Assembly: GCA_947260025.1 (NCBI GenBank)
Contig: CAMYON010000029.1
Coordinates: 10,243-74,242 of the forward strand
Direction: 5' to 3'
Source: an uncultured Gammaproteobacteria bacterium
GTDB lineage: Bacteria > Pseudomonadota > Gammaproteobacteria > GCA-001735895
DNA: 64,000 nucleotides
How positions within the stretch are numbered: the stretch's first letter is position 1; the number at the start of each line of letters is the position of its first letter. The position numbers and the translations under genes were made by a program. Under the pieces are notes generated by a model. That model saw nothing but the letters and a program-made list of their open reading frames with translations. It did no database searches and was not told where the DNA came from. Below, piece by piece: positions 4,449 through 22,565 of this stretch.

Positions 4449-4643
4449 GGCAACCGCCGGAACCCCGCGCGACTGACAGGGTGGCCTGCGGCTTCCCGAA
4501 AAAGGGTGAATTTTTTAGGGCAAGGCGATACGCGACGTCCCTGTCGCGAATCGCCACAGGCCACGTCCATGTGGCCTGACCCTAAAAAATTCACCCTTTT
4601 TCGGCACCCTGTCTTTAGGTCGCGCGGGGTTGCGGCGGTTGCC
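4449..4643 (-). repeat. Structured palindromic element copy A (195 bp; long form with two AYGGAY-like hairpins on the - strand)
   Basis: Nested inverted repeats: 25-bp outer arms 4449-4473/4619-4643 (1 mismatch), 9-bp stem, perfect 25-bp inner arms 4496-4520/4580-4604, two terminal hairpins. Homologous to the reverse complement of 4866-5060. Confidence 0.9.
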
Positions 4644-4865: not shown

Positions 4866-5060
4866 GGCAGCTGGCACGGTTCACCGCAACCTAAAGACCG
4901 GGTGCCGAAAAGGCTCGTTTTTTAAAGGGTCAGGTGGCATGGACGCCACCTGTGGCGATCCGCGACATGGATGTCGCGTATCGCCTTGCCCTTTAAAAAA
5001 CGAGCCTTTTCGGGAAGCCGCAGGCCACCCGGTCAGTCGCGGTGAACTGTGCCAGCTGTC
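4866..5060 (+). repeat. Structured palindromic element copy B (195 bp; TwoAYGGAY-like hairpins on the + strand)
   Basis: Outer arms 4866-4890/5036-5060, perfect inner 25-bp arms 4905-4929/4989-5013, loops ATGGAC (4939-4944) and ATGGAT (4967-4972). Inverted partner of copy A. Confidence 0.9.
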
Positions 5061-20416: not shown

Positions 20417-20548
20417 TACAAGTCTCCAGAAAGCTTTGCAGGGGGATTTTAGACCGCGCAACCTTAAGAAATGTATACCCGGGTGTCAACCACGAGTAAC
20501 GCTGCGGCGACGTTGATCACGCAATCGAATTACTTTATTCTGCCGCCC

Positions 20549-20923
20549 ATGCCGCTCTCTGAAGATATCGTCACCAGTCGCCATCGATTCACTTCCTATG
20601 GCCCCGCTTCTGTCACCATCAACGAAGTGGTCTACCGGCAAAGCCTGGTGCTAACTGCCAACGACATCTACAGCCCATGGGCGGTCTCCTCAATCGAGGA
20701 CCTGAACCCCGAAAACCTGGCGCTCGTGCTCGAATCGAAACCCGCGGTTGTCCTGCTCGGTACCGGTGAACAGCAACGCTTTCCCGATGCCAGGACTTTC
20801 GCCCTGTTCGGCGAACAGGGCATCGGCCTCGAAGTCATGGACAATGGCGCGCTGTGCCGCACCTTCAACATCCTCGTCGCCGAAGACCGCGCCGTCACCG
20901 CCGCTGTCATACTTGGCAGCTAG
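20549..20923 (+). CDS. Mth938-like domain protein (DUF498/NDUFAF3)
   Basis: LLGTGEQQRFP, GLEVMDNGALCRTFNILVAEDR. Confidence 0.88.
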   Translation: MPLSEDIVTSRHRFTSYGPASVTINEVVYRQSLVLTANDIYSPWAVSSIEDLNPENLALVLESKPAVVLLGTGEQQRFPDARTFALFGEQGIGLEVMDNGALCRTFNILVAEDRAVTAAVILGS

Positions 20924-20952
20924 GAACTTCTAGCCGTTAAAACGTCCCAGGC

Positions 20953-21060
20953 GGCAACCGCAGGCCACCCTCTCGACTGACCAGTTTGTCTGCGGCTTCC
21001 CAAGAAAGGGTGTTTTCAGGACAACCGGTCTTTATGTCGAGAGGGGGGCCTGCGGTTGCC
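20953..21060 (-). repeat. Structured palindromic element copy C (108 bp, short form)
   Basis: 25-bp arms 20953-20977/21036-21060 (GGCAACCG...CGGTTGCC); on the + strand it shares CGACTGAC, CTGCGGCTTCCC and GTCTTTA.GTCG with copy A. Confidence 0.9.
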
Positions 21061-21321
21061 TCTGAAATAGCATGGAAGACTCATATCCTTTTCTCGGAGA
21101 CCGCAATCAACAATTGACTGCCGTCAGGTTCTAAATAGCTGAGATAATCTTTTCCTGAATTGTCGGAAATAACTCGTTACGCGAGATGAATCGTCGAATC
21201 GCAAGTTGCAATCCCTGAACATGGTTCGACACGTTGGACCGGCAGTACCCAGTATTTTTGGCTGGGCATTCGAATGTTTTCTCGGAAATTAGATTCAGAA
21301 TCGTTGAACATAAAGTCGGAA

Positions 21322-21429
21322 GGCAACCGGAGGCGTCACTTTCGACATAAAGGCCGGTTGTCCTGAACACATACACTCGTGGGAAGCCACAGGCAAACCG
21401 GCCAGTCGAAAGTGACGTCTTCGGTTGCC
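21322..21429 (+). repeat. Structured palindromic element copy D (108 bp), inverted partner of C
   Basis: 25-bp arms 21322-21346/21405-21429; the reverse complement aligns without gaps to copy C. Confidence 0.9.
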
Positions 21430-21446
21430 GTTTGGGAAGATAATGG

Positions 21447-21471
21447 TCCCGCGACCTGGCCGCGGGATGAC
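21447..21471 (-). terminator. GC-rich hairpin just downstream of rpoS (terminator or small REP-like palindrome)
   Basis: TCCCGCG-N7-CGCGGGA followed by TGAC; no clear U-tract. Confidence 0.35.
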
Positions 21472-21480
21472 AGGGAAAGG

Positions 21481-22553
21481 TTATTCTTCGATGATGTTTT
21501 CGCGGGAGTAGCCGCTGTGCTCGAGGATGCGGCGCAGCTTGCGCAGCGCGTCCATCTGGATCTGGCGCACGCGCTCCCGGGTCACGCCGAGCTCGAGCCC
21601 GACTTCTTCCAGCGTGCCGCGCGGATGATTGCGCAAACCGAAACGGCGCACCACGACATCGCGCTGTTTTTCGTCGAGCTCGTCGAGCCAGCTGTCGAGA
21701 TGCTTGATGACGCTTTCGTCCTGCAGGATGCTGGACGGATCGGGATTGCTGTCATCCGGAATCACGTCGAGTAGCGGGCGCTCGCCTTCGCCACCCATCG
21801 GAATATCGAAGGATGACACCCGGTCGGCCAGTTTGAACATTTTCTCGACGTCCTTGACCGGCTTCTTCAACAGCTGGGCGACATCCTCGGGAGTCGCCTC
21901 GCGATTCAATTCCTGGGTCAGCTTGCGCGCCGCCCTGAGGTAAGTGTTCAGTTCCTTGATAACGTGAATCGGCAGGCGAATGGTGCGGGTCTGGTTCATC
22001 AACCCGCGCTCGATAGTCTGCCGTATCCACCAGGTCGCGTAGGTCGAAAAGCGAAAACCGCGTTCCGGATCGAATTTCTCGACCGCGCGGATCAGGCCGA
22101 GATTGCCCTCTTCGATCAAATCCAGCAACGCCAGACCACGATTCATGTAACGCCGTGCGATTTTGACCACCAGGCGCAGGTTGCATTCGATCATCTTGTC
22201 GCGCGCGGCGGTGTCGCCTTTCAACGCGAGGCGTGAGTAGTACACTTCTTCTTCGGCGGTTAACAGCGGGGAGACTTCGATTTCCTTGAGATAAAGCCGC
22301 GTCGGGTCGGCATCGGATCTTCCGGCTTGCGACGCTCGGTGAACTTTTCAGCTTCGATTACCTCTGCGTCATTATCGTCGTCATCGTCGTCGTCATCATC
22401 ATCATCATCATTGATAATGGTCGCTTGCTCGGAATCTTCTTCTTCGTCATCCGCCAGCTTCGCAGCCTCCTGGTCTTCGACAAGGTCTTCCACCAGGTCT
22501 TCGGCTGGTATTTCGGTATCTTCGATAAGCGACTTATCGGTAGATTTGGTCAT
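21481..22553 (-). pseudogene. rpoS: RNA polymerase sigma factor RpoS, frameshifted near 22318
   Basis: Acidic N-terminus in ORF 22260-22553; region 1.2 ([10 protein letters not shown]...LLTAEEE) and regions 2-4 are in a different frame with an upstream TGA and no start of their own; follows nlpD. Confidence 0.88.
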
Positions 22554-22565
22554 CCAGAGGTTCCT

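Follow-up and report, generated by a model that had tools for sequence, protein, structure and literature searches.

Short paired hairpins between a DUF498 gene and rpoS as probable scaffold-only relatives of extended TwoAYGGAY RNAs in an uncultured gammaproteobacterium

TwoAYGGAY (RF01731) is an RNA family found by Weinberg et al. in 2010 (PMC2864571) that has been an orphan ever since, and its behaviour as an expanding repeat has just been shown in a 2026 preprint (Li et al. 2026, bioRxiv 10.64898/2026.09.22.753630). Members have a shared stem topped by two neighbouring hairpins, each ending in an AYGGAY loop, and score at least 43 bits. The loops have been proposed as CsrA sites (PMC4333381), as they are again in the preprint (10.64898/2026.09.22.753630). 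According to the main text of the latter, Pseudomonas TwoAYGGAY elements carry large structural extensions, vary in copy number and frequently occur as doublets (68.4% divergent, median distance 249 bp), for which the authors suggest a mobile-element-like expansion; variants without one stem hairpin or with extra AYGGAY hairpins are also mentioned there. The extended elements are described there as having an elongated basal stem, a 3' pseudoknot and three extra hairpins. Both the family and its doublets are already known.

The window analysed here, a stretch of 64 kb taken as a whole, contains one such doublet, A and B, located between convergent CysZ/EI24 and metallophosphoesterase genes:

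4449..4643, minus strand: element A, long form, 195 nt (RF01731, 55.3 bits at 4489-4611)
4866..5060, plus strand: element B, long form, 195 nt (RF01731, 61.6 bits at 4898-5020)

Both matches lie on the strand pointing away from the spacer, and within this genome RF01731 matches A, B and one further element, F. Given these matches, and the extensions and divergent doublets described in the preprint's main text, the A/B pair is an ordinary member of the described kind. Its spacer also contains a 19-nt inverted repeat (4701-4719/4755-4773, 18 of 19 positions complementary).

A second locus in the window contains two 108-nt hairpins with 25-bp stems, C and D, mutually inverted across a 261-nt gap between a DUF498 gene and rpoS:

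20471..20923, plus strand: DUF498 (Mth938-like) gene, convergent with rpoS (PF04430, 100 bits)
20943..20952, minus strand: 3' tail of C, UGGGA (plus-strand TCCCA at 20945-20949)
20953..21060, minus strand (the TAAAG-bulge strand, taken as sense): element C, short form, 108 nt
21061..21321, no strand: C/D spacer, 261 nt
21322..21429, plus strand (sense): element D, short form, 108 nt
21430..21440, plus strand: 3' tail of D, GUUUGGGAAGA
21447..21467, minus strand: terminator-like hairpin directly past the rpoS stop codon, between rpoS and D
21481..22245, minus strand: rpoS (NF004207, 410.5 bits against a cut-off of 394)

These lengths, the inversion, the gap and the stems had been described in a sequence-only reading of the window, and all were confirmed by repeat search and in the sequence itself. 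The search placed the stem arms of C at 20953-20977/21036-21060 (96% complementary) and those of D at 21322-21346/21405-21429 (92%), and it recovered C against D as inverted 117-nt arms (20945-21061/21321-21437) that are 79% complementary with 259 nt between them. The finer features reported by that reading are each present as well, namely the TAAAG bulge, a loop of about 22 nt, a relic of A's inner arm and the junction GGGAAGCCrCAGrC, whose exact form occurs in the window at A, B, C and D only; profile matches (PF04430 and NF004207) bear out its naming of the two convergent flanking genes. From its basal end, C consists of a 25-bp stem, an AUAAA bulge, an 8-bp second stem with one G.U pair, and a loop carrying GGGAAGCCGCAGAC, and D has the same interior type (second stem GGTTG/CAAAC). 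The reported G-T mismatches were correctly placed for D, which has two G.U pairs in its basal stem, but not for C, in which the single G.T lies in the second stem and the basal stem has a C.T mismatch instead. Both elements fold far better than shuffled sequences (z -7.9 to -11.3; 0 of 200 shuffles equally good), and the outward strand gives the better predicted fold in each case (D, -67.8 vs -58.9 kcal/mol; C, -72 vs -69 kcal/mol). The spacer is AT-richer than the genome (43% vs 58% GC). The terminator-like hairpin next to rpoS has nine pairs, seven of them G-C, and a weak T-run.

The rpoS gene lies downstream of an nlpD-like LysM/M23 gene. Only positions 78-328 of the 329 in the profile are matched by its open frame; the sequence for the N-terminus is out of frame, with an in-frame stop at about 22248, and the frame upstream (22260-22553) has no Pfam match. 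This region (21481-22560) may hold an assembly frameshift or encode a short RpoS.

C and D differ from TwoAYGGAY RNAs in having neither AYGGAY hairpin, and RF01731 finds no match in 20800-21600 even at E up to 10. When C is aligned to A, a single internal gap of 84+3 nt removes the 5' arm of the inner stem together with both AYGGAY hairpins; the 3' arm stays, and is the relic seen in the sequence-only reading. The second stem of C and D has been re-paired as GGTTG/CAAAC, and these two elements, as well as G and H from elsewhere in the genome, can be aligned with the long forms apart from a single internal gap. The alignments indicate that the short form is a long form minus about 85 nt, lost in one deletion. 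Short forms with other end points were found in other genomes, including a 105-nt form that keeps the 5' arm, a 115-nt form that keeps a short inner stem, a 97-nt form, 83-nt minimal forms and, at the rpoS locus of one relative (G023), a 57-nt bare hairpin. Because the end points differ among genomes, the apical module was apparently lost repeatedly while the scaffold persisted, which marks out the basal hairpin as the repeat's conserved core. C and D are therefore, with high probability, scaffold-only members of a lineage-specific long-hairpin family whose full-length members are 195-nt "extended" TwoAYGGAY RNAs. The features shared with the Pseudomonas elements, as the preprint's main text describes them, are a long basal stem reaching past the Rfam core, a copy number that varies, and frequent divergent doublets at a comparable distance (261 bp for C/D, 249 bp for the Pseudomonas median); this likeness is one of description.

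A covariance model (R1) was built from the short form. C and D score 121.9 bits on the minus strand (53.2 on the plus) and 121.3 bits on the plus strand (52.5 on the minus), respectively, scores that are circular in that both sequences are in the R1 seed. The genome surveyed (3.59 Mb, 170 contigs) contains 11 elements at six loci, arranged as five pairs and one solitary copy, and all 11 have differing stems:

A/B and E/F: long pairs, 195 nt
C/D and G/H: short pairs, 108-109 nt
I/J: pair, 136 nt by R1, 144 nt with extended stem
K: solitary, 136-nt class, 138 nt with extended stem

R1 members occur in 16 of 61 genomes of the genus, independent ones being those of G043, G065, G009, G044 and others, while RF01731 matches occur in 21 of the 61, 18 of them above cut-off. 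A strictly filtered R1 search of 150 other genera of the class, in which 25 candidates were scored for each genome, gave no member, and on the rpoS loci of 22 relatives R1 gave weak generic-hairpin matches only. Among the matches listed by a search of a sequence collection with the 5' scaffold pattern, 30 of 80 loci contained a hairpin, and the true elements among these all come from uncultured gammaproteobacterial MAGs. The remaining listed matches look like chance, with the one in Pseudomonas indica located in coding-like sequence.

A hairpin scan of the genome, of 20 regions drawn from 94 match clusters (a choice that favours R1) and of further listed loci yielded 100 distinct candidates. 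We kept the 64 with the 3' CAG motif; the 36 dropped were inner-stem matches of long forms and chance hairpins. All 64 follow one order, which on the 5' side reads GGCAACCG, about 12 variable bases, G/C-GAC, an [A/C/G]TAAAG bulge, a second stem and the cargo, and on the 3' side CAG[T/C]CG, the complementary variable bases and CGGTTGCC. The basal stem thus spans 25 bp, with GGCAACCG/CGGTTGCC at its ends and GAC/GTC at its top, and is followed by a second stem of 8-9 bp. Four size classes (83, 97-120, 132-144 and 181-216 nt) share this scaffold throughout, and C and D show each of its defining features, with the stem ends, bulge, second stem, CAGTCG, a GGA tail and a convergent gene at the 3' side. 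The proposal that the unit consists of conserved ends around a variable interior is borne out across all cargo classes. Stem positions 9-20 are 97.4% paired, compared with 57% (maximum 62%) with shuffled partners, over 57 distinct stems; at these positions the copies are just 39% identical and each position uses three to four Watson-Crick pair types.

Within this scaffold, the constraint is strand-specific. On the bulge-bearing strand, the basal stems of 60 distinct elements contain 47 G.T and 10 A.C mismatches (binomial p 7.5e-7, although binomial tests overstate significance because the copies are related). Counted by element, G.T exceeds A.C in 28 vs 4 (sign test), and by class the ratio is 20:1 in 16 short forms, 18:5 in long forms and 9:4 in the middle class. 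Replication direction is ruled out as the cause, since within a doublet the excess lies on each partner's own outward strand. In 43 of 63 elements (shuffle mean 20.6, maximum 32) the bulge-bearing strand also has a GGA no more than 18 nt from the 3' end, typically 5-9 nt past that end, compared with 20 of 63 on the 5' side. The suspicion that one strand is the functional one was thus upheld, in that the constraint falls on the outward strand in both mismatches and tail. Orientation relative to genes is equally regular: with gene calls made by a GC3 heuristic, 52 of 58 cases show a convergent gene on the 3' side, its stop codon usually 25-80 nt away, and the gene on the 5' side is codirectional with the element in 41 of 53. 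C/D, A/B and G/H all lie between convergent genes. As a rule, elements lie with their 3' end toward a convergent gene's stop codon.

We consider it somewhat better than even, at a rough probability of 55%, that C and D are scaffold-only TwoAYGGAY relatives acting as RNA on the outward strand. The main rival, which we regard as unlikely, is a selfish palindromic DNA repeat of REP- or MITE-like type, whose movement or upkeep would take place on DNA, for instance through the action of a Y1/HUH transposase on single-stranded hairpins. Under such a model the short forms would be products of hairpin-stimulated deletion decay, and pairing in the stems would be preserved by intra-palindrome repair instead of selection on RNA. 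The strand bias weighs against it, as a G.T excess on the outward strand of both partners is left unexplained by replication direction and both the GGA tail and the TAAAG bulge are restricted to one strand, although G.T pairs are tolerated in single-stranded DNA hairpins as well.

Orthologous loci reveal rapid rearrangement of the elements between close relatives. The C/D locus can be aligned along its full length with that of the closest relative, G043, whose rpoS is 94% identical. There, C corresponds to another 108-nt short form, with 100 of the 108 positions unchanged, and D to a 195-nt RF01731-positive long form, so that the pair is a mixed one of 108+195 nt; the orthologous spacer is also 261 nt long. 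Conservation of the spacer is best beside C (one difference in 33 nt) and beside D (five in 62 nt) and falls to about 75-80% identity in the middle, as judged by eye; two 1-nt indels argue against a coding role. On the alignment, D and its counterpart differ by three fully compensated stem changes and two via G.T (by eye). The second stem and loop start of D are C-like and not like those of the G043 long form, whereas among 16 informative sites in its basal arms, counted by hand since an automatic MAFFT alignment had mis-aligned the 5' half, five are C-like, seven long-like and four neither. Given a C-type interior in D and a long counterpart, the matched lengths (108+108) are best attributed to copying between inverted partners and not to a designed pair of ends; D may also have been replaced by another copy, since its basal stem resembles the G043 long form and C about equally little. 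The A/B pair of G043 (L171, on contig C110) has collapsed through a 483-nt deletion from mid-A to mid-B into a head-to-head fusion of two 3' halves, and at the E/F locus the G043 contigs end inside the elements.

The rpoS/DUF498 intergenic site is a hot spot for hairpin repeats. In 14 relatives the two flanking genes share a contig; the gap between them is 9-45 bp in four of these and 93-155 bp in four, another three carry a different hairpin repeat family, and the last three a long form with a second AYGGAY-bearing element type. A DNA contig of a public run (X2) bridges the site, linking 20917 to 21481 through 60 nt of intervening sequence. At the rpoS loci of G020, G024 and G019 (L006, L007 and L008), we observed unrelated hairpins of about 72 nt with GGGGACAG ends, arranged as inverted pairs around another palindrome at the same intergenic site as C/D.

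The turnover among relatives at this site with its bridging contig, the collapse of A/B in G043 and the differing deletion end points of short forms are what a DNA repeat would lead one to expect, as are local tandem amplifications and the presence of three Y1_Tnp genes in the genome (contigs C50, C58 and C28). Against this, no element was found on any of those three contigs, the genome's copies have 11 different stems with no near-identical copies at unlinked loci (local tandem copies do exist), and no direct repeats flank C, D or the pair, as judged by eye. REPs are elements of about 20-35 nt that occur in hundreds of near-identical copies and flank their RAYT gene. Like REPs and REPINs, the present elements are extragenic palindromes, common between convergent genes and frequently arranged in inverted pairs that could fold into a larger hairpin, in a genome with Y1_Tnp genes; unlike them, they number 11, measure 108-195 nt and have unique stems. 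Membership of the REP/REPIN-RAYT class was rejected on the basis of the differing stems and the element-free Y1_Tnp contigs, and membership of the MITE class on the lack of border direct repeats (by eye) and of near-identical unlinked copies.

The sequence-only reading had proposed that each doublet is a single unit, a paired-end or dispersed cassette whose two ends are C and D, with partners matched in length. In its favour, five of this genome's six loci hold divergent doublets, and in all five the partners match in length; the C/D and E/F spacers both measure 261 nt; and a folding prediction for a transcript or single strand covering both C and D gives one giant hairpin (-242.9 kcal/mol). 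The length match fails in relatives, however, with mixed pairs of 195+108 nt in G043 and 201+195 nt at locus L161. Across the 64 elements, 18 form nine divergent scaffold-scaffold doublets, 14 have a partner of another kind (type 2) immediately upstream and divergent, four are tandem, four lie at contig ends and 24 have no visible partner, a laxer scan having found one for a single member of this last group. The spacers are unrelated, with no similarity among this genome's four loci of this subtype, the orientation of the C/D spacer is the same here and in G043, and public-run contigs, which can hardly show one, contain no inversion or circle joint. That reading had itself named mostly solitary, randomly oriented or mixed-length copies as the observation that would count against it, and, with 24 of 64 elements unpartnered, the tabulation largely refutes the paired-end model; a mobile or invertible cassette now seems very improbable. 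The excess of divergent pairs is real, though the doublet is not the unit.

The type-2 element, 138-152 nt long, is built on a 26-bp stem of its own and contains AYGGAY-like loops as well as a GC hairpin; it matches RF01731 weakly (32-47 bits). Its copies lie upstream of long forms, divergently oriented and about 12-15 nt away, at L012 (around 1140-1270), L013 and L017, which are the rpoS loci of G009, G015 and G002. Elsewhere in this genome, outside the window (contig C42, 6240-6810), a doublet of the 136-nt class has partners 40-48 nt apart by stem extent and lies inside a duplicated flank of about 90 nt followed by a third, truncated interior copy, a nested or rearranged arrangement.

The same reading had offered a divergent pair of non-coding RNAs as its other option. 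Formulated more fully, C and D would be two small-RNA genes with their own promoters in the spacer, acting as weak CsrA/Rsm sponges in which two GGAs serve one dimer. This fits the doublets described for Pseudomonas in the main text of the preprint (68.4% divergent, median 249 bp; 10.64898/2026.09.22.753630), the best conservation of the spacer at its ends beside C and D, and the single csrA gene in the genome. It would also supply the promoter needed by nine of the 21 solitary elements with a 5'-side gene call, in which that gene is divergent (hand tally). No sigma-70-like promoter was found in the C/D spacer, however, and upstream of the elements there is no fixed -10 box or TAnnnT peak, position -1 being A in 47 of 63. 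Neither A/B nor C/D has a GacA-box-like palindrome (the window contains 9 matches to the GacA-box consensus vs 9.2 expected), and the spacers of some doublets elsewhere, about 12-48 nt between partners, leave no room for promoters outside the hypervariable stems. GMTBT(T) pentamers, repeated upstream of the extended TwoAYGGAY elements in the preprint's account, are at background level here, with a mean of 1.25 in the 200 nt upstream (n = 61) and 1.25 in random genome windows. Compared with the CsrB/RsmY/RsmZ sponges (PMC4333381), the elements likewise present GGA motifs on a structured putative RNA, and the two loops of the long forms fit the CsrA motif as described there; in contrast, the short forms' two GGAs lie outside canonical loops, and a GacA-type box and a terminator are absent. 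The AYGGAY loops, the sole published argument for CsrA binding, are missing from C and D, and we regard independent sRNA genes as improbable.

The preferred reading, of scaffold-only TwoAYGGAY relatives acting as RNA on the outward strand, can be given a tentative mechanism. The element would act as RNA on the strand running toward the stop codon of the convergent gene, and its sense RNA would come from transcripts that enter the intergenic region at its far side and run across it, the most likely source given that no own promoter was seen and that some partners are only about 12-48 nt apart. Such read-through cannot supply the sense RNA of the nine solitary elements with a divergent 5' gene. 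The 25-bp hairpin would provide a stable 3' structure, possibly processed by RNase III; with no U-run after either C or D, they are not classical terminators. This 3' structure could shield the facing gene from antisense read-through and display the apical module, which in the long forms holds two CsrA-type AYGGAY loops. The short forms keep two GGA motifs each, in the junction and in the tail; only these being left, C and D would be attenuated or scaffold-only versions, and the junction GGA lies outside a canonical hexaloop in the predicted folds. This RNA-level mechanism, with read-through-made sense RNA and a stable 3' structure, is somewhat less probable than not. Alternatively, a transcript spanning the pair could fold as the one giant hairpin predicted above. 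Public sequencing runs, none with more than 45% of the words and with RNA runs available as contigs, include an RNA-library contig from a relative (X15) that covers 20934-21243 at a depth of 3.8 with 26 differences, a weak signal for which DNA carry-over is possible and which does not count as evidence of transcription.

A bolder version, which we consider improbable, is that the basal hairpin is an autonomous, strand-specific RNA carrier that swaps apical modules and settles against convergent 3' ends. The modules gained, lost and swapped would be CsrA-type AYGGAY hairpins, GNRA hairpins and other cargo; the variable paired middle would confer a per-copy identity, keeping copies from recombining or giving locus-unique RNase III products; and C and D would be the minimal working form and not a wreck.

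A conserved structure over a variable paired middle also recalls integron attC sites, in which an extrahelical bulge lies on one strand and lengths vary. The present elements share the conserved structure, the variable paired middle, the one-strand bulge and the variable length, but their ends depart from the attC core consensus (by eye) and they occur as dispersed inverted pairs without cassette ORFs. Readings of the bulge as that of an attC site or a K-turn were dropped for misfit to the consensus (by eye).

The AYGGAY-less form, the scaffold shared across size classes, the GGA tail and the orientation rule go unmentioned in the main text of the preprint and in the literature found, although supplements may cover some of these. 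Relevance is limited by the uncultured lineage and the low copy number. Within these bounds, the short forms constitute a natural deletion experiment, and long and short forms offer a simple comparison for CsrA binding, RNase III cleavage and read-through. Where the AYGGAY hairpins are lost, the basal hairpin nevertheless keeps its strand-specific pairing (20:1), its GGA tail and its fixed orientation, which points to the basal hairpin, and not the CsrA-like loops, as what decides where and how the element lives.
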